A DNA stretch of 32,000 nt from Promethearchaeum syntrophicum (GCF_008000775.2 NZ_CP042905.2:3810001-3842000); one strand, 5' to 3'. Shown: positions 6,237 to 30,988, counted from the stretch's first letter. A program made the numbers and translations. Notes: generated by a model not told the origin, from the letters alone.

Positions 6237-7490
6237 ATGAACAAAGATAAAAAAATAAAATATTCTGCCTTAATATTTTTAATTTTAACCAGTTTTTCAA
6301 TTATTAACGTTAAATCTATTAATGTAAGTAGCATTCAAAATTCAGGGTTTGATTATGACATATGGCATATGAGTGATAATCTAACAACGGATTATATGGA
6401 TATCTCATATAAACAAATATCACGTGAATCTGTATATGGTGATGATTATTTACAACGTTCTATAGAAATTAAATTCTTAGATGGAACTAATTCACAATTT
6501 TCTTATGCAATCGATTTATCATTCAATGATACAGGAGTGGACCTAGAAAATCATGCTGTTCTTGATTGGTCAAAATATAATGGAATATCCCAATACATTG
6601 AAACAGAAACTGGGTATGGAAATCTCACAATTGATACTCGTTATCTATTTTACGGAATGGCAATTGGAAAAGGTAATGCAAGTCAAATTGCTTTGGGAAA
6701 TTATACATGGACAAATGAACTTGGAGATGATTGTTGGCAATTAGGTCAAGAAAATGAAAGTGCGTTCATCGATTACGGCAATAAAAGTGTTTTTGGAGAG
6801 GTTATATATGAAACGTATAATTATACCTATGAAAATCAAGAATACAAAGATATCATGATCTATTTTAATGTTACAATGGATGGACAAATTGGATTTGAAA
6901 ATCAAATGAGATATCTACCAATCATTATGCCCATTCAGATACATCATAATGTCACTGAAACTTCTTATAAATATGGTTTTGATATGGATTTTTCAGAAGC
7001 TAAAGATTTCTCAACGAACAGTCAACATGAATTATCTGATGGGGATGAATATTTTCTTTTACAAACAGATAAACTTTCTGTATGGTATAGTATTTTTAAT
7101 CAAGAAGATGCTGGTCCAGATGGAGATATTAATCAATTTAGTTCAAATGAAAATAATGATATTGCAGAATTTAATGTAAATGGAATTCCAGTATATCAAC
7201 ATTTTCCAACTTATTATAAATTGGATAATGAAACCTCGGAACGAGAAACTACAAGATTATACTATGAAATTGGTTCAAAAGATCCGGTTTATTTTTCAAC
7301 AATGTTCTTATTATTTGATGGGTTTAAATATAACCAAACATCAAGATTTTATTTTGATCCAAAAATCATTGTTCCAAATATATTAGAGAAATCATCCAAC
7401 ATTCCGGGATTTTCTTTTTATCCTTTAATAAGTGCACTATTTGTTTCGATTTTCCTAATAAAAATCCGTTTAAAAAAGAACTTAAATTAA
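6237..7490 (+). CDS. Secreted, sequon-rich surface protein with PGF-CTERM-like anchor
   Basis: N-terminal signal (KIKYSALIFLILTSFSIINVKS). I count 13 N-x-S/T sequons in 417 aa. The C-terminus is NIPGFSFYPLISALFVSIFLIKIRLKKNLN: PGF (7404-7412), a hydrophobic helix, then a basic tail. Confidence 0.6.
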   Translation: MNKDKKIKYSALIFLILTSFSIINVKSINVSSIQNSGFDYDIWHMSDNLTTDYMDISYKQISRESVYGDDYLQRSIEIKFLDGTNSQFSYAIDLSFNDTGVDLENHAVLDWSKYNGISQYIETETGYGNLTIDTRYLFYGMAIGKGNASQIALGNYTWTNELGDDCWQLGQENESAFIDYGNKSVFGEVIYETYNYTYENQEYKDIMIYFNVTMDGQIGFENQMRYLPIIMPIQIHHNVTETSYKYGFDMDFSEAKDFSTNSQHELSDGDEYFLLQTDKLSVWYSIFNQEDAGPDGDINQFSSNENNDIAEFNVNGIPVYQHFPTYYKLDNETSERETTRLYYEIGSKDPVYFSTMFLLFDGFKYNQTSRFYFDPKIIVPNILEKSSNIPGFSFYPLISALFVSIFLIKIRLKKNLN

Positions 7491-14804: not shown

Positions 14805-16457
14805 TTAGCGTTTTCGCTTGAAAACGAATATAATTCCGATCCCTACACATAAAAGGATTAAACTTAAGCTGGGTCCGGGGATATTTAATGATACTTCGAT
14901 TAATACATCATAATATGCTCCGAAATAGCACCTATCATCTAAGGTAGGATCAATTAACAATCCTACATGAATTTGACCTTCATATGCCCCAGGATAATGC
15001 ATTTCCCAACTCTTATTCACGCTTGCATCAGCAGCCAAATTTCCGATCGTTTGATTTTGACCTCCATTGTTCACATATTCTGGTCCACCATCACTTTTTA
15101 TACCTGATTCTATCTCAAAATTGTATGTATCTGGACCGAGATTTTTCATCTCCATACTAACTATGACATTATCCGGGTATGTAGTGTTAAATGCAGATAA
15201 TGCTAATGTATATTCAACTTCATGACCCCATTCCCCATTTATCGTTTGCAATATTTCCATTCTTCCTCTATAACTTGTTAGTAACAGTACATCATCCGTT
15301 ACCGGATTCACGCAAATTTCATGGTTACCTTCTCCTTGGGTATATACCGAATAGGAAAAGTCGGTAAGAGTCTCGGAAACCCAACCACCCGAGCGATTAG
15401 TGGTATAAACTATCTGTTGAATTTCATTCTCTGTAACAACGCTGAAAACTAAAACGTTATCGTTAGCATCTAAAGCCATTTCTGGGTAATTTGAAACAGG
15501 TCCGATTTTATATGCATCCGAACCATCGGTCGTGGCATTTATTACATCATAATATAACCCAGAATTTTCTTCGTCCCAAGAGCCATTTTCCAGCTGATAA
15601 ATTTGGTTGTAAATAAAGTGAATTGTATCGGTAGAATCGATTTTTATATTTGGTGATTCGCACTTCGAACCATAAATTGGGGATTTCTCCGCAATGCACC
15701 GAGGAGAAGATTCAATCCCACTGGGCGAGATTGTTACATAATATATTGAATTATTGACCTGGAATACAATGTGGGCCAAACCCGTCGAGTCAACAGCCAT
15801 TTTAGGGAAGAATACATAATGAAGAGGGTGTGATTCCTCGTAGCTAATAATATGTCGGGTATAGTTAACGGATTCCGAATCTTCCTCATCAGCAAATTCA
15901 GCAAGGGTAAGATTAGTATATACTAACCCATCATCATCATAACTGATCATATAGATCATTGAACCTGATGGGTTTCCCGTGATTCCAAATGAGAGTTGAC
16001 TTCCTCCGACCCCTTTCTGGTACCAAGATCCATCAGCAGTTTTATTTGTAATATAATTAACAAAAGTTGCTCCATGGGAGTAAATGTGCACATCCCCTTC
16101 ATTATCTACATAAATATCATTGGCTTGAAAGTTGACATATGTAGGATCGATTAATAATTCAGGTTCTGACCAACTTCCCGTAGCATTATCAATATAGTAA
16201 ACATTATGTCCTTCTTCCCAAGTACCGCTATACACAATTGATACAGTTCCTGTTGGACCAATAGCCATATCTCCTTCAAGAGTAAAATCATCCAAATACT
16301 CCCAATAGGGTACTATAGCCGTTTTTGGTCCCACTATTAGTGTTTCTGTTGGGTATCCGTAGCCATTTACCTGATTAATTGCTAAATTGCTTCCTATCAA
16401 AAATACGAAGATCCCCAGCAGAAAAATTCTTTGCTTTGTATGTTTCATAAAATTCAC
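14805..16457 (-). CDS. Secreted beta-propeller-like protein with CARDB/Ig-like module and C-terminal membrane anchor
   Basis: Signal peptide (RIFLLGIFVFLIGSNLAINQVNG). Seven spaced repeats of a D/P-x-x-G/D-x-hydrophobic strand: PTGTVSIVYS, DNEGDVHIYS, NPSGSMIYMIS, DSTGLAHIVF, DSTDTIHFIY, DANDNVLVFS, PVTDDVLLLTS. CARDB-like VIVSMEMKNLGPDTYNFEIE. C-terminus NIPGPSLSLILLCVGIGIIFVFKRKR. 11 N-x-S/T sequons. Confidence 0.6.
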   Translation of the reverse strand: MNFMKHTKQRIFLLGIFVFLIGSNLAINQVNGYGYPTETLIVGPKTAIVPYWEYLDDFTLEGDMAIGPTGTVSIVYSGTWEEGHNVYYIDNATGSWSEPELLIDPTYVNFQANDIYVDNEGDVHIYSHGATFVNYITNKTADGSWYQKGVGGSQLSFGITGNPSGSMIYMISYDDDGLVYTNLTLAEFADEEDSESVNYTRHIISYEESHPLHYVFFPKMAVDSTGLAHIVFQVNNSIYYVTISPSGIESSPRCIAEKSPIYGSKCESPNIKIDSTDTIHFIYNQIYQLENGSWDEENSGLYYDVINATTDGSDAYKIGPVSNYPEMALDANDNVLVFSVVTENEIQQIVYTTNRSGGWVSETLTDFSYSVYTQGEGNHEICVNPVTDDVLLLTSYRGRMEILQTINGEWGHEVEYTLALSAFNTTYPDNVIVSMEMKNLGPDTYNFEIESGIKSDGGPEYVNNGGQNQTIGNLAADASVNKSWEMHYPGAYEGQIHVGLLIDPTLDDRCYFGAYYDVLIEVSLNIPGPSLSLILLCVGIGIIFVFKRKR

Positions 16458-19205: not shown

Positions 19206-19796
19206 TTAAAAAAGTTCTTCCCATTTTTCGATTACTTTGAAGAATTCTTTGATTTGGGGGTGATCCAGATCTATTTTTTTAATTTTAAAAAATTCTTCCC
19301 ACCCTTCACGTATATCACCGGGAGTCAATAAAGTTTCAAAATCCTCTTTTGTCTGAAGAAATCGGAGATAACCATCATGTAGTTCTTCATTTATAACTTC
19401 AGCTCCAAATATTTTGTTGACTTTAGTTGTAAAACCAAAATAATGCTTGATCGGATTGATAGTATTAGTCTTATATCGAAGAACTAAGTAATTTTCTATT
19501 GAATTATCTAAATTTCCCCCCTTTTCATGAAAAATTGACTGAAATTCGAGGTTATTATCTATGAAATTTTCAAATATAAATACATAAAATGAAAAAGACT
19601 TTTCGTAAATTTTTTCAAAATCATTTTTTGATTCAAAATTGATTCTAATGAAAGATTTATCTCCTAAATCAACAATTTCAGGATCTTTCTTATATAAAAG
19701 TTTGAAAGCCTTACCAATTTTCTTCAACATTTCTAATTTTGATAATTCCTCTTCCAAAGTTCGTTCTATTGAAATTTCTAGGAAGGGTTTAATCAT
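19206..19796 (-). CDS. Hypothetical protein (196 aa)
   Basis: A clean ORF, co-directional with and just upstream of the phosphatase. No motif recognised. Confidence 0.5.
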   Translation of the reverse strand: MIKPFLEISIERTLEEELSKLEMLKKIGKAFKLLYKKDPEIVDLGDKSFIRINFESKNDFEKIYEKSFSFYVFIFENFIDNNLEFQSIFHEKGGNLDNSIENYLVLRYKTNTINPIKHYFGFTTKVNKIFGAEVINEELHDGYLRFLQTKEDFETLLTPGDIREGWEEFFKIKKIDLDHPQIKEFFKVIEKWEELF

Positions 19797-19850: not shown

Positions 19851-20840
19851 TTAAAAATTAATATCTTGGCCAATGTTTTCTTTTAGAGCTCTATCGTATA
19901 CAAGTTTTGCAACAGCAACATCTTGAGCAGCAATTCCGACCGATTTAAAGACTGTGATCTCAGAAGACGATTTTCGGCCAGAAGCTTTTCGATTTATTAT
20001 ATCTCCAATCGAAATTATATCATCTTTCGATATGATTCCTTCACTAATCGGAATAATGTAATCCCCTGCTTCGGCAATACATGCATCTTTCAATCCCGCA
20101 ACAAGTAAATTTGCTTTCTTAATGGTTAAAGAATCTAATTCTCTAGCTTTAGGCGCATGTGCTCCAATAGATGAAATATGCATTCCTTCTTGAATTTTTT
20201 CACCCGAAAACAATGGTTCAGAGCTGGTCGAAGCCGCCACTAATATATCAGAACTGAAGAATTCATCTTTTACTTCATCAATTATTTCAATATCAATCCC
20301 AAGTTCTTTCTCAAGTTCAAGCTTAAATGATTCGGATGCTGCTCTATGAACATCAAATACCTTACATTTCTCCAGTTTTTGATTTAATGCCCAATAAGTT
20401 GCAACTACTTGTTTCTTTGCTTGAGTTCCTGCTCCGAATATGCTCATTTCAGTGCTATCCTTCCGCGCTAAATATTTTACCGAAACCCCTGTAGCAGCAC
20501 CAGTTCTCATAGCAGTAATCAATCCCCCATCCATAATTCCTACTATTTCACCAGTATTAATATCTTGAATCATTATCTTACCAAGAACCGTAGGCATATT
20601 GTGCTTCTCAGGATTATCTTTATACACTGAAACGATTTTTGTTGCTAAAGCATTCATCCCGCCACCGATAATCCCGGGCATAATAAGTGTTAATCCAGGA
20701 GCAAGGTCAGTTATTGCAATTCGTTGAGGAACTATTGCATTTCCTAGCGAAAGCTGTTTATAAGCATTTTCAACATAATTTAAGGTATCAGACATAGTTA
20801 GGAGTTCAGCCACATTCATTTTATTCAAAATTCGTACCAT
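19851..20840 (-). CDS. Ornithine cyclodeaminase / mu-crystallin family NAD(P)-dependent enzyme
   Basis: 329 aa. Family-typical layout with the Rossmann loop IFGAGTQAKKQV, ITAMRTGAATG upstream and GIAAQDVAVA near the C-terminus. Confidence 0.8.
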   Translation of the reverse strand: MVRILNKMNVAELLTMSDTLNYVENAYKQLSLGNAIVPQRIAITDLAPGLTLIMPGIIGGGMNALATKIVSVYKDNPEKHNMPTVLGKIMIQDINTGEIVGIMDGGLITAMRTGAATGVSVKYLARKDSTEMSIFGAGTQAKKQVVATYWALNQKLEKCKVFDVHRAASESFKLELEKELGIDIEIIDEVKDEFFSSDILVAASTSSEPLFSGEKIQEGMHISSIGAHAPKARELDSLTIKKANLLVAGLKDACIAEAGDYIIPISEGIISKDDIISIGDIINRKASGRKSSSEITVFKSVGIAAQDVAVAKLVYDRALKENIGQDINF

Positions 20841-21059
20841 GCATAAATTGAATATATTCTAGTAAAAAAACTTTTAATAGAAAAAAATGGAATCTAACAT
20901 ACCAAATTTTCTTTTGAGAAATAGGATTTGTTACAAAAAATTAAATAATTTTATTAGAAAAACTAATCCCAATTTAGAAAAAGAAATAATAGGTTATTTG
21001 AAATTAAAGATGTGAACAAATTGATTAAATTTAGTGATAAACAACTTAAAATTCCAAAA

Positions 21060-22442
21060 ATGAGCAAACCGGTTTATTTAGCTACTGTCGGAATGTCGAA
21101 ATTTGGAAGATCTTTTCCTGAAACGCGAACTGAAGAACTTGCAATTCAAGCTTTAACCGCTGCAGCAGATTTCTTAAAAATGACTCCTGCAGAGCTCAAA
21201 AGTTATATCCATACTTGTTATTATGGTCATTTTGCAGATCATTTCGGAGATCAATTATTGGGTGAATCAGTCATTCATGATAGATTGGGATTAGATCCGC
21301 TTGGAAATATTGGTGTTAAAACTGGAGGTGCTACAGGGGGCTCTACAATGTGGGAAGCAATAAAAGCTGTAGCTTCTGGATATAGTAATTGTTCCTTAGC
21401 GCTTGGATGGGAAAGAATGGATGAAGCTCCGACTGATGAGGGAAACCATTTAATTTCTGCAGCCGCAGATAAAGATTGGGAAACCCCAATGGGCCACATT
21501 TATACAGGTTATTATGCAGTTATGGCCCAGCGTTATTGGAAGATTTTCGGAAAATCTGAAGATTCTTTTAGACGTACTATGGCAGAAGTATCGGTAAAAA
21601 ATCATGGATATGCAAGGATGAATCCTTATGCACAAGCTCCTATGAAAATTACTGTTGATGATGTAATTAAATCACCAATTGTAGCTGATCCTTTACGTGT
21701 ATTAGATTGTTGCTTAATGAGTGTAGGTGCTGCATGTGGTATAGTCTGTGATGAGAAAACTGCTTATGAATTAACCGATAATCCGCTACGAATATGGATT
21801 GGAGCAGGAAGTCACACTTTACGTGTTGCAGACCGACGTGATATGGAAATTCCACTACTTCCAAACGAAAAAGTAGGACAATATGATGATTTAGCTACAA
21901 GATTTCCAGGTGCTGATCGCTATCCAGGATTTACTGGTTTCTTAGCGGCGCGTGTAGCGGCTTATTATGCTTACAATATGACAGGTATCAAGGATCCGAC
22001 AGACGATCTTGATGTTGTTGAACTTCATGATGCATTTACAATAAGTGATATCCAAACTTATGAAGATGTAGGAATTCGTCCTTACGGTGAGGGTCGAGAT
22101 TATATTGAGTCTGGAGATGCATACCATATCAATCCTAAAACGGGGAAACCAGGAAAACTGCCTAGCAATCTTAGTGGTGGATTAATTGGAACTATGCATG
22201 CAGTAGGTGCTACAGGTTTAATGCAAATTGCAGAAGTTGGATATCAAATTTGGAATAGATGGGATGAAATACACGAAGATTCCGCCAAATGGAAAGAATT
22301 TGGTCGAGAAAAACCGAGTGATTGGACAAGCCTACAGGTTAAAGGGGCAAAAAGAGGACTAGCAATCAGTCATGCAGGAGTAGGATCACATGTTACTGCT
22401 ACAATTCTAATGGACCCAAATCATTTACTCAAGGAGGACTAA
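21060..22442 (+). CDS. Thiolase-fold (SCP-x/archaeal type) protein lacking the canonical catalytic cysteines
   Basis: MSKPVYLATVGMSKFG start, GWERM (GxEKM), VADPLRVLDCC, ELHDAF, SGGLIGTMHAVGATG. The nucleophile box reads GGATGG where CASGG is expected (Gly codon 21327-21329). The HDCF box reads HDAF (22026-22037). The ORF track begins at a GTG (21012); I prefer the ATG at 21060. Confidence 0.8.
   Translation: MSKPVYLATVGMSKFGRSFPETRTEELAIQALTAAADFLKMTPAELKSYIHTCYYGHFADHFGDQLLGESVIHDRLGLDPLGNIGVKTGGATGGSTMWEAIKAVASGYSNCSLALGWERMDEAPTDEGNHLISAAADKDWETPMGHIYTGYYAVMAQRYWKIFGKSEDSFRRTMAEVSVKNHGYARMNPYAQAPMKITVDDVIKSPIVADPLRVLDCCLMSVGAACGIVCDEKTAYELTDNPLRIWIGAGSHTLRVADRRDMEIPLLPNEKVGQYDDLATRFPGADRYPGFTGFLAARVAAYYAYNMTGIKDPTDDLDVVELHDAFTISDIQTYEDVGIRPYGEGRDYIESGDAYHINPKTGKPGKLPSNLSGGLIGTMHAVGATGLMQIAEVGYQIWNRWDEIHEDSAKWKEFGREKPSDWTSLQVKGAKRGLAISHAGVGSHVTATILMDPNHLLKED
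22431..22438 (+). promoter_or_regulatory. Shine-Dalgarno-like AAGGAGGA 8 nt upstream of the DUF35 ATG (translational coupling with thiolase-like gene)
   Basis: AAGGAGGA lies inside the 3' end of the upstream CDS, with a stop-to-start gap of 4 nt. Similar boxes precede the 24321 ATG (GAGGGAG) and the minus-strand ATG at 29953-29955 (AAGGAGGA). Confidence 0.5.
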
Positions 22443-22446
22443 GAAA

Positions 22447-23046
22447 ATGGTCAAAGCAGAAGAAGATATTGGAAGAGTAAAAATTGTAAATGGAAGATAT
22501 AAATTAAGTGGAAAATTCCATATTCCTGAAGCAAATCAACCAATTTTTAATGAAGATACTGGAAAATTGGCAGGCATAACCAATCCAAGAGATATGACTT
22601 ACGTACATTCCTACGGTGGGGAAGCGATTTTCTTTGAAGGAATAGCTACAGGAAAACTTTGGGCTTCACGTTGTGATAACGAAAAATGCGCAAATCCTGG
22701 AACTATCTATGAACCATTTAGAATTTATTGCCCTGATTGCCTAAGGAAAGCAACACCAATAGATATCACAGAAAAGGCGCGAAAAACTGCAAGAGTTCAT
22801 TCATATATAATAACCGCACGTTCTGGGGCCTTTAATTCTCTAAAATTGCCAATAAAATTTATAAATGTTGAATTTGAAGGTGTGGCTACAATTTTAATGG
22901 GATATCTATCCGTGGGAGAACCAGAAATGGGAATGCGTGTTGTGCCCATTTTTAATACTAAAAAACCAACCTATACAATTGTTGACATCTCTTGGGTTCC
23001 TGAAGGTACTAAAGAATCAGAATTACCAGAAGGATTTACTTTTTAA
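22447..23046 (+). CDS. DUF35 (Zn-ribbon + OB-fold) acyl-CoA-associated protein
   Basis: Zinc ribbon CDNEKC...CPDC, followed by an OB-fold-like segment (ARVHSYIITARSGAFNSLKLPIKFINVEFEG...MGMRVVP). Canonical partner position immediately after a thiolase-fold gene. Confidence 0.8.
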   Translation: MVKAEEDIGRVKIVNGRYKLSGKFHIPEANQPIFNEDTGKLAGITNPRDMTYVHSYGGEAIFFEGIATGKLWASRCDNEKCANPGTIYEPFRIYCPDCLRKATPIDITEKARKTARVHSYIITARSGAFNSLKLPIKFINVEFEGVATILMGYLSVGEPEMGMRVVPIFNTKKPTYTIVDISWVPEGTKESELPEGFTF

Positions 23047-23123
23047 GTTTTAATGGGGTATTTCCATTTTTTTATATTTATTTTTTTTTTGTAATTACCA
23101 ATAATTTGAGATGATAAAATAAA

Positions 23124-24305
23124 ATGAATCATATTTTTTACAGCGAAGAAGAATTAGCGTTTAGGGATGAAGTTAGAGCCTTTTGTGAAAGGGAACTTGC
23201 ACCTTACGAAGATGAAATCCAAAAAACCAATCCCTTTAGGCGAGATCTACTACAAAAAATCGCACAAGCGGGTTATATGTCTGTACACCATCCTCCAGAA
23301 GTAGGAATTGGAAAACACTGTGGAAAAGGCTTGGTATATGAAACTATCGTAGCAGAAGAAATTTCAGCAGTCATTGCAGGTCTTGATATGGCTCGAATGG
23401 CTTCAGCGACTCTTTTTGGAAAACCTGTAGCTCGTTTTGGAACACCAGAACAGATCGAAAAATATTTAAAACCAGTATTACGAGGGGAAAAAATAGGAGC
23501 GATAGGAATAACAGAACCAAATGTTGGATCGGATACTGCTCGGATGGAAACTCATGCAGAAATTTCAAAAGATGGAAAGGGTTTCGTTCTTAATGGCAAG
23601 AAATATTATATTACAAATGGAAGTCAAGCGGATTTCTTGTGTGTCTTTGCAATTACCGATAACACAGTAAATCCAAGAAAAGGAATGACAGCTTTCATTG
23701 TTGAAAAGACTATGCCTGGATTTACTACCGTGAAAGATATAGATCTAATGGGAATGGCTGGTTCACGTGTTTCCGAATTAGCTTTTAAAGATGTTTTTAT
23801 TTCTAATGATCAATTATTAGGAGGAATAAACAACGGCTTCGGCATCCTTATGGATGAACTTGACTCAGAACGCGTTGCTATTGCAGGAGAATGTCTTGGA
23901 TATGCAAGACCTGCCTTAGAAAGTGCAATAACCTATTCAAAAGAACGCATTCAATTTAAACGACCCATCAAAGATTTTGAAGGAATTAATTTTAAAATTG
24001 CAGATATGGCTACAGACTTTGAAGCAGCGCGTTTACTTACGTTAAAAGCTGCACGCGCTTATGATAATGGCGAAAGAATTACCAAGGAGGCGGCTATGGC
24101 GAAAATATTTGCTTCTGAAATGGCCATTCGGGTATGTGATCAAGCCCTTCAAATACTTGGTGGAAGAGGATATGAAAAGGAGCATAAAATCGAACGCTAC
24201 TATCGTGATGCTAGACTCATGACTATGGGTGGAGGTACTGTAGAAATTCTCCGTTATTTAACTCAGCGAGAAATTTACAAAAAATTTGATGGTAAATATT
24301 GGTAA
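23124..24305 (+). CDS. Acyl-CoA dehydrogenase (FAD-dependent), IVD/LCAD-type catalytic-base placement
   Basis: GITEPNVGSDTARM, YITNGSQADF, and the C-terminal YYRDARLMTMGGGTVEILR. Gly sits at the MCAD Glu376-equivalent position (codon 24231-24233). Glu sits in LDSER (codon 23868-23870), equivalent to IVD LDLER. Confidence 0.9.
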   Translation: MNHIFYSEEELAFRDEVRAFCERELAPYEDEIQKTNPFRRDLLQKIAQAGYMSVHHPPEVGIGKHCGKGLVYETIVAEEISAVIAGLDMARMASATLFGKPVARFGTPEQIEKYLKPVLRGEKIGAIGITEPNVGSDTARMETHAEISKDGKGFVLNGKKYYITNGSQADFLCVFAITDNTVNPRKGMTAFIVEKTMPGFTTVKDIDLMGMAGSRVSELAFKDVFISNDQLLGGINNGFGILMDELDSERVAIAGECLGYARPALESAITYSKERIQFKRPIKDFEGINFKIADMATDFEAARLLTLKAARAYDNGERITKEAAMAKIFASEMAIRVCDQALQILGGRGYEKEHKIERYYRDARLMTMGGGTVEILRYLTQREIYKKFDGKYW

Positions 24306-24320
24306 ATATGAGGGAGAAAA

Positions 24321-24752
24321 ATGGAGCACGTCAAACTAGCGGATTGGGATAAAATCCAAGTAGGAGATAAAGGTTTTCACGGAAAAACTATAACCGAAAC
24401 GGATCTTGTTCTTTTTGCGGGAATTTCTGGAGATTTTAATCCAATGCATGTAAATAAAGAATATGCAAAAAATACCAAATATGGGAAGAGAATCGTACAT
24501 GGAATCGTGAGTGTTTCCTTAATAGCGGGCGTATTAGGAATGAAACTTCCTGGGCCAGGAACAGTTCACGTTTCCCAAAAGGTAGATTTTAAAAAGCCAG
24601 TTTTCATCGGAGATACTTTAACTGCTGTGGCTGAAATCTTAGAAAAATTTACGAAAAAGGAAGGGAAACTAAGATTTCTCAAAATTAAAACTGATGTTTA
24701 CAATCAAAATAAAGAAATTGTAACTGACGGTGAAGCCTTAGTAATTATCTAA
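24321..24752 (+). CDS. MaoC-like (R)-specific enoyl-CoA hydratase (hot-dog fold)
   Basis: Hydratase-2 motif FAGISGDFNPMHVNKEYA; 143 aa single hot-dog. SD-like GAGGGAG upstream, with a 15-nt gap after the ACAD gene. Confidence 0.85.
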   Translation: MEHVKLADWDKIQVGDKGFHGKTITETDLVLFAGISGDFNPMHVNKEYAKNTKYGKRIVHGIVSVSLIAGVLGMKLPGPGTVHVSQKVDFKKPVFIGDTLTAVAEILEKFTKKEGKLRFLKIKTDVYNQNKEIVTDGEALVII

Positions 24753-24863
24753 ATGAAAACTAATTGACCAATTTATCTCTTATATTTTTTTAAGATTTCT
24801 ATTATCTTGTTAAATCTATCTGTGTAGAACTATTAAAAATCTTCCTATTTTCTTCCTATTTTC

Positions 24864-24871
24864 TTTATATA
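24864..24871 (+). promoter_or_regulatory. TATA-like box TTTATATA about 32 nt upstream of the 24900 ATG (own promoter, near-leaderless mRNA)
   Basis: Located in the 147-nt spacer after the MaoC gene. No SD-like sequence precedes the ATG. Confidence 0.35.
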
Positions 24872-24899
24872 TTGTACTGTCTTTTTTCCTTCGTATATA

Positions 24900-27800
24900 A
24901 TGCAAAATTCTTCAACAAATCAGAATTATATTGGAATTAATATTGGATCCGTCTCTGTTAATGTTGTAATTTCTGATAATTTTGGAACTTTTAAGTGCGA
25001 AAAAAAAGCCCATTTTGGAAATCCACAGCAAATTTTAAAGGAAATTCTTGAAAAATACGAAAATGGAGACCAGAAATTTTTTGGAGTTTCGGGTACATTT
25101 GGAATTGTTTCTGAAATTACAGCTATTGAAAGAGCACTTGCCTCTTTAGAAAAAAAATATGATCTAATTCTTTCTCTCGGGGGGGAGGCATTCATTTTAT
25201 ACGTTTTGGATTCAAATGGACACATTGTAAACATTTTATCTCAAGATAAATGTGCTGCTGGAAGTGGAGAATTTTTCATACAACAAATTGAAAGATTAAA
25301 TCTGCCATTGAATGAAGCAATTGACTTAGCAGAAAAAGGTGAGGATATTCAGATAGCATCGCGCTGTTCAGTTCATTGTAAATCAGATATAACTCATAAA
25401 TTGAATAAAGGAGAAGCATCAATTGAAGATGTTCTTTGCTCTTTAGTATCCAATATGATCAATAAAGGGATTGGTCTAATTTATCAATCTCGAGTTAATT
25501 TAACAAACCTTTTAATAATTGGGGGACTTTCACTTAACAAAGTTGTTCTTCAGAAATTACGAAAGGCTTTACCTGAAGCACATGTAGATAAACTTGAATT
25601 TAGTCACGTTTTTGAAGCATACGGAACATCTTTGTTAGTACAGGATAATCCAGAATACAAAATTCCAAAATTAATCACAAATAAAACATTTTCTATGCTT
25701 CCTTCATTGCACGAATATGGACATCTTGTTAAAATCATGGAAAAACCAGGTGTCAATGAAAAATTTGATCCTCAATCTTCATATATATTAGGTATTGATG
25801 TCGGATCAACAACTACTAAAGCAATTTTGATGCATCCGAAAAATAATGCAATAATTGCATCCCATTATGGTCGCACAAATGGAAACCCAATTGAAGCTAC
25901 AAGATCATGTTTAAGGGAAATTATCAAACAAACGGGTGATGAAAGAGGAAAAATAAGTTTAGTTGGAGTAACTGGTTCAGGAAGACAAGTTGTAGCAGCT
26001 TATTTAGGAACTCCTGCAGTTTTTAATGAAATTTCTGCTCATTCGATTGGAGCGGCCTATTTTGATTCAGAAGTAGATACAATATTTGAGATAGGAGGCC
26101 AAGATGCTAAATATATGCTCTTGCAAAATGGCGTCCCAGTTGATTATGCAATGAATGCATCATGTTCAGCTGGGACTGGAAGTTTTCTTGAAGAAAGCGC
26201 CAAATGTGATTTAGATATTCATGTTTATGATATTAGTGATATTGCATTAAAAGCTCCAAAAGCTGTAAGATTTAAAGCAGATTGTGCCGCTTTTATTAAT
26301 TCTGATATTCGTACTGCCCTTCAAGAGGGCTATTCTAAACAGAATATTATTAGCGGACTTGTTTATTCTATTGTTAATAATTATCTAAATAAAGTTAAGG
26401 GGACTAGACCAATAGGAGATAAAATTTTCTTCCAAGGAGGCGTCGCAAAAAATAATGCTGTTGGTTATGCATTTGCCCAAGTAACTGGAAGAGAGATAAT
26501 TATCCCTCCGTTTCCAGAATTGATGGGTGCCTTCGGAATCGCATTAATCGCTAAATCGAAACTGGAAAAAAGAGAAATTTCATCAATGTCCTCCTCTACA
26601 ACATTGAAATCATTAATTGAACCATCATTAAAACATCTTGGTAATTTTACCTGTAAATCTTGTGATAATTTTTGTCAAATTGAAAATTATGCAGTTGGAA
26701 ATCGAAAATTCCCTTTCGGAGGGAGATGTACTAAATATGAACATTTATGGAAAGGGCAGAAATCAGCTTCGGAGAAGAAAGATTATGTATCTTTTCGTAA
26801 TGATTTAATGTTTCCGGGTAATGTTTTAATAGATAAAAAAAAAAAAATCAATGAGAAAAATCAAATTGGAATACCAAGAGCATTATTAACTCACAGTTTG
26901 TTTCCACTCTTTTCTACTTTTTTCAAAGAAATCGGATATGAAGTAGTATTGTCTGATATTGAACCTGATGCAGAATTACTACCCAATGCTCCACTGTGTT
27001 ATCCAATTCAAATTTTGCATGGTGCCATCGCCAATTTGATCAAACAAAACATTAAATTAATCTTTTTACCATATATTTACAGAATGAAGAAAGGAGAAGG
27101 ATGGTTTGATTCAACTTTTTGTCCAATTTCCCAATCTAGTTCTTATTTAGTTGCTCCAAATTTTGAAAAAGTTGAAATTCTAAAACCTGAATTAGAATTT
27201 TCAGAAGGATATGAAAAATGTCAAGAATTAATAAATTTAGCTATAGAAAAGTTATATATCCCCCATAAAATGAGTGTGGCGGCTTATAATAAAGCAGTAC
27301 GCCATCAAAATAATGTAGAAACCCAATTTATTAAAAAAGGTAGGGAAATTTTAAAAAAACTATCCAAGTCGAATGATACAGGAATCATTGTAGTAGGGAG
27401 AAGCTATAATGTTTTCCCTAAAGAAACTTCGCAATCTATTCCCAAAAAAATAACGAGTATGGGAGTTACTGTAATTCCTTTTGATTTCTTAGAAAAAAAA
27501 TCAGTAACAACTTATCCTTGGTTCTTTGCTAACTATGTTTCAGAAGCTGTTGAGCTAGTTAAAAAGCATGAGAATTTGTTTTTACTTTACATTAATAGTT
27601 ATAGTTGCACAATGGATGCTTTTGTTCAGAATTATGTACGTACAGAAATGAAATCTAAACCGTATTTACTCATGGAATTAGATGCCCATATGGCGGATGC
27701 AGGAACTCAGACTAGAATCGAAGCTTTTTTGGAAATTATTAAAAATTATCGTCATTCTTTACAGAACACTTCATCTTCAGTGTATCACATGGCAAAAGCT

Positions 27801-29159
27801 GAAACTGAAAATGGAAAAGCAGTAATTACTACATCCTCTGGTGAAAAATTGGACCCTAATGATCCTCGTGTAAAAATATATCTCCCCCCTTTCTCAACTT
27901 TCCATACCGATTTAGCGGAAAAACTTCTTACAAAATTTGGATTTAATATGGGACATACAGGTGATATAAAATTAGAATATCCCGTAGAAGGATTGAAACA
28001 CTGTTCAGGAAAAGAATGTAATCCCCTACCGGCAGTATTAGGGCATATTATGCATTTAGTAAAAAATCGTGAACCTGGAGAGGTTATAGGGTATTTTATG
28101 TTACGAGGAGGGCAACCGTGTGTTGTTTTTAGTTATTTCCAATTTTTAGAACAGTTTTTAACAAAAAATCGAATAAAGGATGTGTTTATTTTTTGTTTCG
28201 ACAAGTATAATGATTTCATGGGAGTTAATATATTAGAATATCTTCAACAAGGTCCAAAAATTGTAGTTTTAGGAGATATTATGAATGAAATTGAAAGCGC
28301 ACTTGAAGTTGTCGGGAAAGGTAAAAGTTTAGAAAAGTTTCATTCATATTGGAGAAATTTCTTGGAAAGCTTCACTGATATACAAGATATAAATCGTGAA
28401 ATGAACATACTTATCCAGAAAATTAAAAAATTGCCAATAATCGGATCACCCCAAATGTTTCCTAAAGTTTGTTTAACAGGAGATTTCTTTGTTCGGTTTA
28501 GCCCATTTTTCCTTCATGATCTAAAATCAGCTTACACGAAGAATAAGATTATTGTAAAATCATCAGAATTATTTGAACTTTTTACCTATGGTGTACCCTT
28601 TGGTAACATGGTTAGCTATAAAGTCCGAGATCAATATTTACAAAAGATACGGGCAAAATTTCATGGGAAAGATCGGATTTGGAATGATTTTTCTTTTGGA
28701 TTTTATGCAAGCCAAATTGCATATTTTGTGATGAGAATTATTGAAAAAAGAATGCGCAAAAAATTCGAAAAAACCGGTCTTCTTTTCTCTAAACCAACGG
28801 ACATCATGAAAATTGTAAAAAATGCAGAACCTCATATCAATCCAAATATTTTTGGGGAAGCTATCTTGAATATTGGAAAAGGAATTGAAATAATAAATGA
28901 TCGAGAATTTAATGGGCTTATCCTAATCGGACCCCAATATTGTTTACCTTATCGTATATCTCAAGCAATTCTTCAACCTATCTTTATTGAAAATAAATAT
29001 CCGTTTTTAGTATTTGATGCAGAAATTACAGCGATGTCTCCAAATATGAAAAGATTAATTTCTGCTAATATCGAACAGATCAACCGTAGATTTAAGAGAA
29101 TGGTTCCTGTTTTATCTGAAGACACTGTTAAAATGGAAGGAAAAAAGATATTCCTTTAA
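24900..29159 (+). CDS. Giant fusion: two BcrAD/BadFG-type (HgdC-like) activase ATPase domains + DUF2229-type C-terminal region
   Basis: ATPase 1 (about aa 1-260): IGINIGSVSVN, DKCAAGSGEFF, ASRCSVHCKSDI. ATPase 2 (about aa 295-555): LGIDVGSTTTKA, NASCSAGTGSFLE, KADCAAFINSDI, FQGGVAKN. Cys cluster C-x2-C-x3-C-x17-C at 26652-26729. The long remainder (about 850 aa) resembles the CoA-enzyme-activase-associated DUF2229 region (GIPRALL..., VVGRSYN..., LTGDFFVRF...). Confidence 0.8.
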   Translation: MQNSSTNQNYIGINIGSVSVNVVISDNFGTFKCEKKAHFGNPQQILKEILEKYENGDQKFFGVSGTFGIVSEITAIERALASLEKKYDLILSLGGEAFILYVLDSNGHIVNILSQDKCAAGSGEFFIQQIERLNLPLNEAIDLAEKGEDIQIASRCSVHCKSDITHKLNKGEASIEDVLCSLVSNMINKGIGLIYQSRVNLTNLLIIGGLSLNKVVLQKLRKALPEAHVDKLEFSHVFEAYGTSLLVQDNPEYKIPKLITNKTFSMLPSLHEYGHLVKIMEKPGVNEKFDPQSSYILGIDVGSTTTKAILMHPKNNAIIASHYGRTNGNPIEATRSCLREIIKQTGDERGKISLVGVTGSGRQVVAAYLGTPAVFNEISAHSIGAAYFDSEVDTIFEIGGQDAKYMLLQNGVPVDYAMNASCSAGTGSFLEESAKCDLDIHVYDISDIALKAPKAVRFKADCAAFINSDIRTALQEGYSKQNIISGLVYSIVNNYLNKVKGTRPIGDKIFFQGGVAKNNAVGYAFAQVTGREIIIPPFPELMGAFGIALIAKSKLEKREISSMSSSTTLKSLIEPSLKHLGNFTCKSCDNFCQIENYAVGNRKFPFGGRCTKYEHLWKGQKSASEKKDYVSFRNDLMFPGNVLIDKKKKINEKNQIGIPRALLTHSLFPLFSTFFKEIGYEVVLSDIEPDAELLPNAPLCYPIQILHGAIANLIKQNIKLIFLPYIYRMKKGEGWFDSTFCPISQSSSYLVAPNFEKVEILKPELEFSEGYEKCQELINLAIEKLYIPHKMSVAAYNKAVRHQNNVETQFIKKGREILKKLSKSNDTGIIVVGRSYNVFPKETSQSIPKKITSMGVTVIPFDFLEKKSVTTYPWFFANYVSEAVELVKKHENLFLLYINSYSCTMDAFVQNYVRTEMKSKPYLLMELDAHMADAGTQTRIEAFLEIIKNYRHSLQNTSSSVYHMAKAETENGKAVITTSSGEKLDPNDPRVKIYLPPFSTFHTDLAEKLLTKFGFNMGHTGDIKLEYPVEGLKHCSGKECNPLPAVLGHIMHLVKNREPGEVIGYFMLRGGQPCVVFSYFQFLEQFLTKNRIKDVFIFCFDKYNDFMGVNILEYLQQGPKIVVLGDIMNEIESALEVVGKGKSLEKFHSYWRNFLESFTDIQDINREMNILIQKIKKLPIIGSPQMFPKVCLTGDFFVRFSPFFLHDLKSAYTKNKIIVKSSELFELFTYGVPFGNMVSYKVRDQYLQKIRAKFHGKDRIWNDFSFGFYASQIAYFVMRIIEKRMRKKFEKTGLLFSKPTDIMKIVKNAEPHINPNIFGEAILNIGKGIEIINDREFNGLILIGPQYCLPYRISQAILQPIFIENKYPFLVFDAEITAMSPNMKRLISANIEQINRRFKRMVPVLSEDTVKMEGKKIFL

Positions 29160-29175
29160 AAAATTGAAAATAAAG

Positions 29176-29955
29176 TTATTTCCCAATTGCCATACCTGTT
29201 GGATCTAGTTCTCTTAATAATTGAACTTCTTCGCGCGTAGGGATCGGAGTTGTGGGAACATCTTCGGGAATAATAATTTCAAAACCACAATTATTTCGGA
29301 TATCTTCTTTAGAGATTCCTGGATGAATCGTCTCCAATTTCATTATTTTGGTCATTTCGTCAAATCCATAGACTCCAAGTTGAGTTATTACTTTAATTGG
29401 TCCACTATTTTCAGGAAGTCCCGCTTTTTCTCGAGCACCTGGTCCATCTAAATACCCAGGACTAGTGATGAAGGTTACATTCTCAACGAAATTTCGTTTA
29501 CTTTGTCGGATAATAATTATAAAATTATGACTCAATGAAGCAACATCATTTCCCCCTCCACTTCCAGGTAATCGCACTTTAGGTTTCGCCCAAGATTCGC
29601 CTATGTATGTTGTATTAAGATTTCCATATTTATCCAATTCAGCACCTCCAAGAAAACCGTAATCAGTCCATCCTGCTTGGGAAAAACTCATATTATCATG
29701 CATTGTACTGATGGAAATTGCGCGATATCCCGTTCTTGAATCACCTACAGATATAGGAAGAGTTCTCATCTGAGGTCCGATGGAACCTGCTTCAAAAATG
29801 AGTAATAAATTAGGTGCATGAGTCCGTTGGGCAAACATAGCAGCAATCATAGGAAGTCCCGTGCCCACAAAAACAGATTTATTATCTTTAAGCGCTTTTC
29901 CCGCAGTTACAGCCATTAAATGGGTTGCAGTGTAATAAGTATCATTTTGAGCCAT
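29176..29955 (-). CDS. CoA-transferase family I, subunit B (glutaconate/3-oxoacid CoA-transferase beta-like)
   Basis: LLLIFEAGSIG (catalytic-Glu context ExG), PGSGGGND, and VITQLGVY in the C-terminal segment. The ATG at 29953-29955 is preceded by AAGGAGGA and lies 1 nt after the subunit A stop. The ORF track's 29976 start is less likely. Confidence 0.8.
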   Translation of the reverse strand: MAQNDTYYTATHLMAVTAGKALKDNKSVFVGTGLPMIAAMFAQRTHAPNLLLIFEAGSIGPQMRTLPISVGDSRTGYRAISISTMHDNMSFSQAGWTDYGFLGGAELDKYGNLNTTYIGESWAKPKVRLPGSGGGNDVASLSHNFIIIIRQSKRNFVENVTFITSPGYLDGPGAREKAGLPENSGPIKVITQLGVYGFDEMTKIMKLETIHPGISKEDIRNNCGFEIIIPEDVPTTPIPTREEVQLLRELDPTGMAIGK

Positions 29956-29956
29956 G

Positions 29957-30988
29957 TTATTTTCCTCCTTTTCCAAGCTTCTTATCTAACCAAGGAGCTT
30001 TCAAATCTGCTCGATAATGTTCTAATTCATACAAATATTTCATTTTTTCTTCTCCCCCATTCAATTTTAAATATTCTTCGAAATTTGAAACTCCAAAAAC
30101 ATATTTATCCAACCATAGTTTCAAACCCTCATCAGTCTTAGACATATCTAACCACTCACTTATCGCAACTTCATCAAAATAATATTGCCCAGGCATATTA
30201 CACGGGTGAGAACCATATTTTACCTCGATGACAGCATCAACAAAAAATCCGGGAATCAACGTTTCCCAAGGTTTTTTTCTGATTTCTTCATTATCAATAA
30301 TTTTTTCTGTGGTTACTACCAATTTTTTGGCTGCACGAGCTAATTCAAAGTCTTCAACTACATATCCATCATATTGACAATTCCCAAATTTATCCGCTCG
30401 TGGAACATGAATAAAAACAATATCAGGATTACATGAAGGAACTAAGCAGATCGGCTTCTTTGTCCAAGGATCTTCTACGACTTTCGCAGATGATTTTCTT
30501 AATGTATCTGATCCAAGCATTGTTCGTGTTGGAACAAAGGGAACTCCCATCATTCCTCCCAAGAAACGCCATTGATGCCCAGCATTACTTATCTCAGAAA
30601 CGACCTTTACTCGTCCAGATTCGACTGCATTTCGTCCACATTTTGAAAGACCCCGCATTTCATGCCCAAAACAATATGCCACCTCGATTTTGCTCAGAAT
30701 TCCACCTCCAATCATAACATCAATGTCATGAACACCAGTTTTACCTAACATCGTAAGGTTTCGTTTTTTTTGCCGAATCATTTCAAAAATTCCAGCCATG
30801 CTCACTCTAATATGCCCAAAACCACCCATGGCAATGACATCTCCATCACTAACATATTTTGAAACAGCATCTGATAAAGACATACGCTTGTCTACTAGTG
30901 CACGAGATCGTTTAGCCATCCAAGCTCGGTTTTCATCGGGATCATGCCAACCTACTAATTCCCCAGTACCTTCTTCTAAGATTTTCAT
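29957..30988 (-). CDS. CoA-transferase family I, subunit A (GctA-like)
   Basis: 343 aa. VSDGDVIAMGGFG (glycine-rich N-terminal loop), long alpha-type subunit, translationally coupled to subunit B. Confidence 0.8.
   Translation of the reverse strand: MKILEEGTGELVGWHDPDENRAWMAKRSRALVDKRMSLSDAVSKYVSDGDVIAMGGFGHIRVSMAGIFEMIRQKKRNLTMLGKTGVHDIDVMIGGGILSKIEVAYCFGHEMRGLSKCGRNAVESGRVKVVSEISNAGHQWRFLGGMMGVPFVPTRTMLGSDTLRKSSAKVVEDPWTKKPICLVPSCNPDIVFIHVPRADKFGNCQYDGYVVEDFELARAAKKLVVTTEKIIDNEEIRKKPWETLIPGFFVDAVIEVKYGSHPCNMPGQYYFDEVAISEWLDMSKTDEGLKLWLDKYVFGVSNFEEYLKLNGGEEKMKYLYELEHYRADLKAPWLDKKLGKGGK

Follow-up and report, generated by a model that had tools for sequence, protein, structure and literature searches.

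Promethearchaeum syntrophicum MK-D1 is a cultured Asgard archaeon, and a 10-kb stretch of its genome combines genes of acyl-CoA metabolism with one very large gene for a putative ATP-dependent iron-sulfur (Fe-S) reductase. We have analyzed this cluster within a window of 32,000 nucleotides (nt; NZ_CP042905.2, 3810001-3842000), to which all positions refer; its giant open reading frame (ORF) encodes a product with 100% identity to a protein of P. syntrophicum. The plus strand encodes a thiolase-fold protein without catalytic cysteine (21012-22442; assigned by Pfam and by the NCBIfam family NF004982/PRK06365), a DUF35-like partner of 199 amino acids (aa) (22447-23046), an acyl-CoA dehydrogenase (ACAD) with the catalytic geometry of isovaleryl-CoA dehydrogenase (IVD) (23124-24305; Pfam, NCBIfam and residue-level alignments), an (R)-specific MaoC enoyl-CoA hydratase (24321-24752; PF01575, E 1.7e-24) and a fused Fe-S reductase of 1419 aa from the PlsA/Ger (BCR/HAD/DCCP) superfamily (24900-29159; Pfam and PDB activators), here called the giant protein. 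On the minus strand follow subunit B (CoAT-B, 29176-29955) and subunit A (CoAT-A, 29957-30988) of a glutaconate-CoA-transferase (Gct)-like enzyme. An earlier note had described the same seven ORFs and had read them as one pathway. All its coordinates were reproduced, and its domain calls agree with our Pfam and NCBIfam searches. The underlying observation is largely correct, while the unifying pathway is not supported by anything beyond adjacency at the level of the genus. The best explanation, which we hold to be somewhat probable, is that four separately conserved units lie side by side in this genus only: a short or branched acyl-CoA module that lies beside an unrelated lipid-ester reductase.

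The junctions between the genes delimit these units. The thiolase-like and DUF35-like genes are separated by 4 nt with AAGGAGGA at 22431, ACAD and MaoC by 15 nt with GAGGGAG at 24310, and CoAT-A and CoAT-B by 1 nt with AAGGAGGA at 29970 on the minus strand. The last value holds for a CoAT-B start at ATG 29955, which is the start chosen by the gene caller in our locus L001. The three gaps are exactly those from which coupling had been proposed, and we agree with this reading as translational coupling. By direct reading, the 77-nt spacer between the DUF35-like gene and ACAD contains two T-runs and a TATA-like element. The spacer between MaoC and the giant gene (147 nt, 24753-24899, plus strand) is AT-rich with 22% GC. 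It holds a T-run at 24785, a tandem direct repeat of two CTTCCTATTTT copies at about 24839-24861 and, directly downstream of the repeat, the TATA-like TTTATATA at 24864, 36 nt 5' of the giant ATG. Thus, the proposal that the giant gene has its own promoter is consistent with this spacer, which would be a putative promoter region. The giant and CoAT-B genes are convergent with 16 nt between their stop codons. Four transcription units are the most economical reading of this arrangement, as far as it can be judged from the sequence. A scan for bacterial sigma-70 promoters and terminators gave 31 promoter-like sites compared to 43 in shuffled sequence and is uninformative for an archaeal host. The CTTCCTATTTT repeat beside TTTATATA (24839-24871) is possibly a regulator binding site. 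At the other end of the cluster, a gene caller placed a 42-aa ORF at 20887-21015 (L001:3872-4000), which shares 4 nt with the thiolase-like gene at the GTG start of the latter. The thiolase-like protein is matched by its homologues from about residue 4 onward, so that its exact start is slightly uncertain.

Whether the genes form one module was examined by synteny. We collected 80 loci with genes for relatives of the thiolase-like protein, taking 10 kb on either side, and searched them with all proteins of the window. The full set of thiolase-like, DUF35-like, ACAD, MaoC, giant, CoAT-B and CoAT-A genes is confined to metagenome-assembled genomes (MAGs) of Promethearchaeum (L002-L004), with proteins that are 84-95% identical. 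A homologue of the giant or of CoAT-B was found in none of the other 77 loci. In all 80 loci whose downstream sequence can be read, a DUF35-like gene lies next to the thiolase-like one, and this adjacency spans Asgard archaea, Methanobacteriota, Marinimicrobia, Spirochaetes, Leptospirales and several deltaproteobacterial lineages. Unbiased clustering of neighboring ORFs identified only two companions of the pair across lineages, an ACAD-family gene (70 of 81 loci) and a crotonase-type enoyl-CoA hydratase (17 loci). Homologues of the giant are solitary among unrelated neighbors in all five contexts outside the genus (L085 to L089); their identity is 56-64% in other Lokiarchaeia, Harpocratesius and Heimdallarchaeum and 42% in Nitrospira. 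The Gct-like A/B genes form a stand-alone pair in Lokiarchaeum ossiferum and in a Hodarchaeales MAG, and the A/B pairing is also kept in Harpocratesius. Neither the thiolase-like gene nor ACAD or MaoC lies near the CoA-transferase in any of these three contexts outside the genus. The earlier note had suggested looking for co-occurrence in other genomes and had named a lack of synteny among the results that would speak against its pathway. We find the seven genes together only in Promethearchaeum and not syntenic beyond it. Conserved linkage in one genus does not sustain the idea of a single self-contained module.

The thiolase-like protein is the most interesting member of the cluster. Gly106 aligns with the nucleophilic Cys (AACASG) of the archaeal thiolases 6ESQ and 7YVY, and H339-D-A341-F (HDAF) occupies the position of the HDCF motif. 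Both G106 and A341 within HDAF are invariant in 121 of 121 homologues, in which 173 of 476 columns are invariant altogether. A test for membership among thiolases of the SCP2/archaeal type thus fails at the nucleophilic Cys as well as at the acid/base Cys of HDCF. The protein had been described as Cys-less, and it clearly is. Without the nucleophile no acyl-enzyme intermediate can form and hence a non-thiolytic chemistry is required, in line with the earlier exclusion of thiolysis. Asgard and bacterial homologues share 75-79% identity, and the bacterial members are located on long, clearly bacterial contigs. In a scan of 1.8 billion representatives the core Cys-less family forms one 50% cluster. 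It is surrounded by a wider clade of 420-490-aa proteins that also carry Gly and HDA[FY], and canonical thiolases with C...HDCF are found further out. The closest solved relatives are archaeal thiolases (E about 1e-34; Foldseek ranks 1-2), and the DUF35-like protein is related to its archaeal counterparts more weakly. 7YVY also has HDAF; however, the archaeal thiolases keep the nucleophilic Cys that is invariantly Gly here. The thiolase-like protein is also about 90 aa longer than the archaeal thiolases, with an insertion at about 278-306 and a C-terminal extension, and no HMG-CoA synthase gene is adjacent. Its AlphaFold model is confident in the fold (pTM 0.79), but the active-site loops have pLDDT values below 50, so that no structural conclusion can be drawn about the invariant His and Tyr residues. 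Six of these (H67, Y70, Y71, H73, H77 and H89) belong to a family-specific segment, and further invariant histidines are at 162, 268, 421, 454 and 460. This His/Tyr-rich segment, HTCYYGHFADHFGDQLLGE...H89 (residues 67-89, window 21210-21280), is absent from canonical thiolases and is possibly a metal or substrate site.

The label DUF35 for the partner protein is only partly justified. The protein is below the Pfam threshold (E 0.018 and 0.065), yet it matches the DUF35 structure 3IRB of the PDB with E 1.3e-4 as a single sequence and 1.4e-6 as a family profile, and it has an OB fold and an invariant zinc ribbon of four cysteines, C-x4-C...C-x2-C (C76, C81, C95, C98). An N-terminal extension of about 60 aa (TNPR, HSYGGEAxFF) is specific for the family. 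The combination of a thiolase fold, a Gly in place of the nucleophilic Cys and an adjacent gene for a zinc-ribbon DUF35-like protein, with a predicted complex, is shared with the steroid aldolases Ltp2-ChsH2 and Sal-Shy. Likewise, igr-type operons comprise ACAD (ChsE), MaoC hydratase (ChsH/Shy), DUF35 and a Cys-less thiolase fold, and all four families stand side by side in MK-D1. There are, however, clear differences. The thiolase-like protein resembles archaeal acetoacetyl-CoA thiolases more closely than Ltp2 or Sal, in sequence as well as in fold. A fold search grouped it with thiolase-fold proteins that have a DUF35 partner; 6ESQ/6ET9, SCP2-thiolase and BbsB came first, Ltp2 reached rank 22 and Sal rank 35. 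The DUF35-like partner is a separate protein with its own N-terminal extension and is not fused to a hydratase as in the steroid aldolase systems. In addition, the hosts of the pair are anaerobes without steroid catabolism. Catalysis in Ltp2 depends on Tyr294 of YDHF and on Tyr344, and in Sal on Tyr302 and Cys304 of YDCY (PMC12329534). The retro-aldol cleavage proposed in the earlier note is therefore an analogy only, with HDAF in place of YDHF or YDCY. A literature search for the Cys-less family and for MK-D1-specific treatments of the cluster genes returned nothing specific.

The genomic surroundings of the pair point to short-chain acyl-CoA metabolism. In a Pseudomonadota MAG (L071:129-8438) an eight-gene array on one strand comprises thiolase, 3-hydroxyacyl-CoA dehydrogenase, crotonase, ACAD, a large subunit of the MM_CoA_mutase family, a B12-binding subunit and the thiolase-like and DUF35-like genes, which, judged from gene content, links the pair to a B12-dependent rearrangement of acyl-CoA carbon skeletons. 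Another bacterial locus (L081) combines a helix-turn-helix cupin regulator, the pair, two acyl-CoA ligases, an IVD-like ACAD and a Liv-type ABC importer. Both are short-chain acyl-CoA operons. Methylcrotonyl-CoA carboxylase of the canonical leucine pathway was not seen beside the pair in the bacterial loci examined. As to the archaeal relatives, a divergent ACAD-like gene of 447 aa without the N-terminal ACAD domain flanks the pair at L084:2488-13019 and at about 40-50 other Loki loci. Near the pair, most other Lokiarchaeia encode a beta-keto acid cleavage enzyme (BKACE), a DAO/DAO_C (GlpA-like) flavoprotein and canonical sets of two thiolase and two DUF35 genes.

In the ACAD of MK-D1, helix G bears Glu249 within LDSER, and Gly370 (GGG) takes the place of the YEG of butyryl- and medium-chain ACADs. 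By alignment with the isovaleryl-CoA dehydrogenase 4O5M and the butyryl-CoA dehydrogenase 4L1F, it thus places its base as IVD does, with a helix-G Glu and a Gly at the position of Glu376 of the medium-chain enzyme. The IVDs 1IVH, 4O5M and 4KTO, which are among the top PDB matches, have LDYER and GAG, compared to LDSER and GGG here. The ACAD is below every NCBIfam equivalog cut-off. Of 74 ACADs that neighbor the pair in other loci, 65 show the IVD-type E/G(A) pattern; they include the divergent 447-aa Loki genes and three bacterial members with textbook IVD signatures. Long-chain ACAD has the same base placement as IVD, and for this reason the residue pattern suggests a branched substrate without proving it. 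In the MaoC protein the hydratase-2 motif FAGISGDFNPMH is intact at aa 32-43, with Met at the [LIV] position of the consensus [YF]-x(1,2)-[LVIG]-[STGC]-G-D-x-N-P-[LIV]-H, which contains the catalytic Asp and His. The assignment as (R)-specific hydratase made in the earlier note is well founded. A fatty-acid synthesis of archaea that is independent of acyl carrier protein has been proposed to employ (R)-hydratases of the MaoC type and thiolase/DUF35 pairs.

Taken together, the bacterial contexts and the IVD-type base support a model in which the pair works with ACAD on short, possibly beta-branched acyl-CoAs. From the motifs, synteny patterns and fold relationships described here we infer the coupling of the first two units, their substrates and the chemistry of the thiolase-like protein. 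Most likely, the thiolase-like/DUF35-like pair and the ACAD/MaoC pair would act jointly on a short, probably beta-branched acyl-CoA. It would be dehydrogenated by ACAD with its IVD-like base, hydrated by MaoC to the (R)-product and, as 3-hydroxyacyl-CoA, processed by the thiolase-fold protein that is buttressed by the zinc-ribbon DUF35-like subunit. Retro-aldol-type C-C cleavage is our leading guess for this last reaction, and non-catalytic scaffolding is the alternative. A scaffold role is possible, but fits poorly with the extreme conservation of the pair. The Gct-like transferase would activate or release a carboxylic acid, and it may or may not serve the first two units.

The giant gene had been placed in the same acyl-CoA pathway as a replacement for a dehydratase. 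In this respect our data lead to a different view. Its Pfam order is two BcrAD_BadFG domains (PF01869 twice, E 1.3e-54), DUF2229 (PF09989, 1.5e-52), a short HGD-D segment (PF06050 at 873-947, a weak and partial match of 31 bits to profile positions 267-342) and a weak second PF09989 at about 1006-1056. This is the BBD architecture, two PF01869 domains followed by PF09989 and by small PF06050/PF09989 segments, that defines the glycerol ester reductase Ger and the plasmalogen synthase PlsA (Sahonero-Canavesi et al., PMC13159169). Ger from T. maritima (Tmari_0479) and D. alkenivorans and PlsA(R) from C. perfringens, E. faecalis, L. cremoris and B. longum are each sufficient in E. coli to convert the sn-1 ester to an ether (PMC13159169, PMC12838417, PMC9702350). 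All members that have been tested experimentally reduce the sn-1 ester of glycerolipids to a vinyl or alkyl ether (PMC13159169, PMC12838417), and, according to the field, sequence neither distinguishes Ger from PlsA nor predicts an alkyl or an alkenyl outcome (PMC11868695). Validated fused plsA genes have a length of 4.2-4.9 kb (PMC12838417), a range that includes the 4.26 kb of the giant gene. In BLASTP the giant is collinear over 1271 positions with a fused PlsA-type protein of Listeria monocytogenes (E 7e-92, 25% identity), and each of the Cys motifs has its counterpart; the activity of this Listeria protein as PlsA is taken from PMC9702350. Domain order, a length of about 1400 aa, the Fe-S Cys motifs and the single stand-alone gene are common to the giant and to PlsA/Ger. 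One difference lies in the host, which is an archaeon whose known lipids are isoprenoid ethers.

The architecture of the giant protein is that of a self-contained, ATP-driven fusion of activator and catalytic parts, just as the earlier note had assumed. The activase domains match the PDB activators 4EHT and 1HUX. Nineteen cysteines are kept in at least 103 of 106 full-length family members. The two activase domains carry Cys118/156/160 and Cys422/462, with their cluster-bridging pairs among the conserved residues, which also take in a CxxCxxxC...C motif at 585-610 and the six residues Cys700, 741, 903, 1040, 1074 and 1348 of the catalytic half. In the AlphaFold model of residues 570-1419 (pLDDT 79, pTM 0.74) the C-terminal half matches catalytic subunits of DCCP, BzdNO, HadBC and MbdON in Foldseek. 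Since each match covers about half of the region, it holds two modules of the BCR/HAD/DCCP type, whose fold is thus like that of DCCP, benzoyl-CoA reductase and 2-hydroxyacyl-CoA dehydratase. In the proposed mechanism the two fused activase domains would spend ATP and pass a low-potential electron via Fe-S clusters into this double catalytic module. A 2-hydroxyacyl-CoA dehydratase system has separate alpha and beta subunits and a homodimeric activator, with genes for a 2-hydroxyacid dehydrogenase and a CoA-transferase alongside, and the giant is a single fused DUF2229 polypeptide; its kinship to the dehydratases is at the level of the superfamily. The characterized substrates of the family are lipid esters and not CoA esters, and therefore a role of the giant in an acyl-CoA pathway is not supported. 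The architecture and the solitary occurrence outside the genus argue in the same direction. We regard the giant as a probably autonomous enzyme of the PlsA/Ger family that, by analogy within the superfamily, would reduce ester lipids in the archaeon. Ger homologues have been reported in "Ca. Prometheoarchaeum syntrophicum" and in Heimdallarchaeota (PMC13159169). The MK-D1 homologue is not tied exactly to the giant; the link rests on the architecture and on the sole match named P. syntrophicum in our homologue search. A second BBD-type paralogue of 1505 aa is found in Harpocratesius sp. (L092:6967-16774, JBPLBG010000029.1). It shares 35% identity with the PlsA type of Listeria and 23% with the MK-D1 giant, and it is convergent to a Gct-like pair at a distance of 5.3 kb, with a BAR-domain protein and a CitMHS transporter in between. 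Harpocratesius holds both BBD subfamilies and, hence, Asgard genomes can carry two. We have considered whether this proximity of BBD and Gct preserves the MK-D1 arrangement and rejected it, because this BBD is a different paralogue.

The CoA-transferase itself is an ordinary enzyme of family I. Among solved structures, both subunits match GctAB of Acidaminococcus fermentans (1POI) best (1POI_A E 5e-37, 1POI_B E 2.2e-48), and the AibAB decarboxylase and the IpdAB hydrolase are far more distant. The catalytic Glu of CoAT-B is kept in LLIFEAG, where FEAG aligns with VESG of the 1POI_B motif IIVESG. The description as GctAB-like is hence accurate, and given the conserved Glu a real CoA-transferase activity is likely. 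Subunit sizes are similar to those of GctAB, but the MK-D1 pair is not located beside hgdCAB-type dehydratase genes. On the other side of the cluster, a divergent gene of the OCD/mu-crystallin family (19851-20840, minus strand; PF02423, E 1.2e-66) has the position and identity given in the earlier note and is below all NCBIfam equivalog cut-offs. Its suggested link to the pathway did not hold: the gene adjoins the cluster only in the genus-level locus L003, and we have rejected it as a pathway member in view of the missing linkage beyond the genus.

Several observations weigh against a division into four units with these roles. The genus-wide, stable co-location of the giant with the acyl-CoA units could still reflect function, and a BBD paralogue does lie near Gct-like genes in Harpocratesius. 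MaoC is found beside the pair in Promethearchaeum only. Among the nine bacterial ACADs adjacent to the pair, five have the canonical base. The residues that carry catalysis in Ltp2 and Sal are replaced in the thiolase-like family by His and Ala at those motif positions (121/121). With respect to the lipid-ester reductase, the giant is only about 25% identical to the PlsA-type sequence that was aligned, which is of the Firmicutes type from Listeria. It belongs to a distinct subfamily of Asgard and Nitrospira proteins (Nitrospira 42%), and MK-D1 may possess a second BBD copy, perhaps the one meant in the literature.

The strongest rival, although unlikely, is an ordinary beta-oxidation or fermentation of the butyrate/crotonate type in which the Cys-less pair is a dead scaffold or regulatory subunit, comparable to DUF35 in the archaeal thiolase/HMG-CoA synthase complex, and canonical thiolases encoded elsewhere perform the thiolysis. 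The ACAD has its best overall PDB match in butyryl-CoA dehydrogenase 4L1F (270 bits, compared to 259, 247 and 231 bits for IVDs), canonical thiolase/DUF35 pairs are encoded a few kb from the Cys-less pair in other Loki loci (L084), in the L071 array the pair is accompanied by a complete canonical set for beta-oxidation, and the known aldolase residues are absent. In the MK-D1 paper, reversible butyrate metabolism is the role given to ACAD and thiolase genes of Asgard archaea (PMC7015854). However, the number of invariant columns, the identity across domains and the many invariant His and Tyr residues resemble a selected active or cofactor site rather than a relaxed pseudoenzyme. The ACAD base is of the IVD type and not of the butyryl type, and the MK-D1 cluster contains no 3-hydroxyacyl-CoA dehydrogenase.

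A bolder reading, which we regard as still less likely, is that the pair could be a new kind of C-C lyase for tertiary or otherwise non-oxidizable 3-hydroxyacyl-CoAs, working with the IVD-type ACAD and an enoyl-CoA hydratase, while the PlsA/Ger-type gene would independently provide an ether-lipid chemistry of bacterial style. Such a lyase may, for example, convert 3-hydroxy-3-methylbutyryl-CoA to acetone and acetyl-CoA. Its catalytic apparatus may consist of HDAF and the His-rich segment H67-H89, unlike both known thiolase-fold aldolases.

A single pathway of all seven genes, with the giant in place of HgdAB/HgdC and acting on a CoA ester from the Gct-like transferase by analogy with clostridial 2-hydroxyacyl-CoA fermentation, appears quite improbable. 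Its appeal is understandable. The catalytic half of the giant is homologous to subunits of 2-hydroxyacyl-CoA dehydratase and benzoyl-CoA reductase and its activases to HgdC and HadI. The arrangement is stable within the genus (L002), and the Harpocratesius paralogue lies near Gct-like genes as well. The Gct-like genes stand directly beside the giant across the 16-nt convergent gap, an adjacency that recalls the gctAB-hgdCAB gene order in Acidaminococcus. But the same convergent orientation rules out co-transcription of the giant with the CoA-transferase, and their linkage is not conserved: outside the genus there is none for the giant (0/5), the CoA-transferase (0/3) or the pair (0/77). The paralogue of Harpocratesius shares only 23% identity with the giant and belongs to another subfamily. 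The MK-D1 cluster lacks a 2-hydroxyacid dehydrogenase, and the characterized members with the exact architecture of the giant all act on glycerolipids (PMC13159169, PMC12838417, PMC9702350). The least probable view is a lipid neighborhood, a bacterial-type ether-lipid module in an Asgard archaeon: acyl chains would be remodeled or provided by ACAD, MaoC, the pair and the CoA-transferase, and the PlsA/Ger-type enzyme would then fix them as ethers. It draws on the physical adjacency within the genus, on the Ger/PlsA assignment and on the proposed role of MaoC and thiolase/DUF35 proteins in archaeal fatty-acid synthesis, but a thiolase without nucleophilic Cys is incapable of Claisen condensation, the window lacks acyltransferase, glycerol-phosphate and CDP-alcohol genes, and the linkage is absent in other genomes.

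In the flanks of the cluster are genes typical for Asgard archaea: those of an Arf-family GTPase, a leucine-rich-repeat (LRR) TIR protein and Endo_dU. The first two are of the eukaryote-signature type, an Arf/Roc-family small GTPase of 153 aa (1236-1697) and a 629-aa LRR protein with C-terminal TIR (3793-5682). A 136-aa ORF at 14296-14706 matches the FMN_red profile at positions 62-142 only; either it encodes a flavoprotein that is truncated at the N-terminus, or its start is misplaced. The ORFs at 6237-7490 (417 aa), 14805-16457 (550 aa) and 19206-19796 (196 aa) have no Pfam or NCBIfam match; the last is kept beside the OCD gene in Promethearchaeum L003 with 74% identity.

CoA-transferase, hydratase and ACAD are members of ordinary families, and only the IVD-type base of the ACAD deserves attention. 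The giant belongs to a known family that has already been flagged in this organism. Nevertheless, giants annotated as "CoA enzyme activase/DUF2229" invite mis-annotation as fermentation enzymes when they lie beside acyl-CoA genes, although the characterized members make ether lipids. MK-D1 is a model Asgard archaeon, and an action of a PlsA/Ger-type enzyme on its ester lipids would bear on the lipid divide in eukaryogenesis, a lead that is already in the literature. The part worth pursuing is the thiolase look-alike. The thiolase-like/DUF35-like pair is a well-defined, widely conserved variant that NCBIfam recognizes as a family. With an identity of about 77% between archaea and bacteria the thiolase-like protein is among the most conserved of the neighborhood, and it matches none of the characterized catalytic solutions. 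If the pair is indeed a C-C lyase, it would provide a leucine/isovalerate-type route independent of carboxylase and biotin for anaerobes that range from Asgard archaea to Spirochaetes. Its reaction, once assigned, would fill a gap in the short and branched acyl-CoA metabolism of many uncultured anaerobes.

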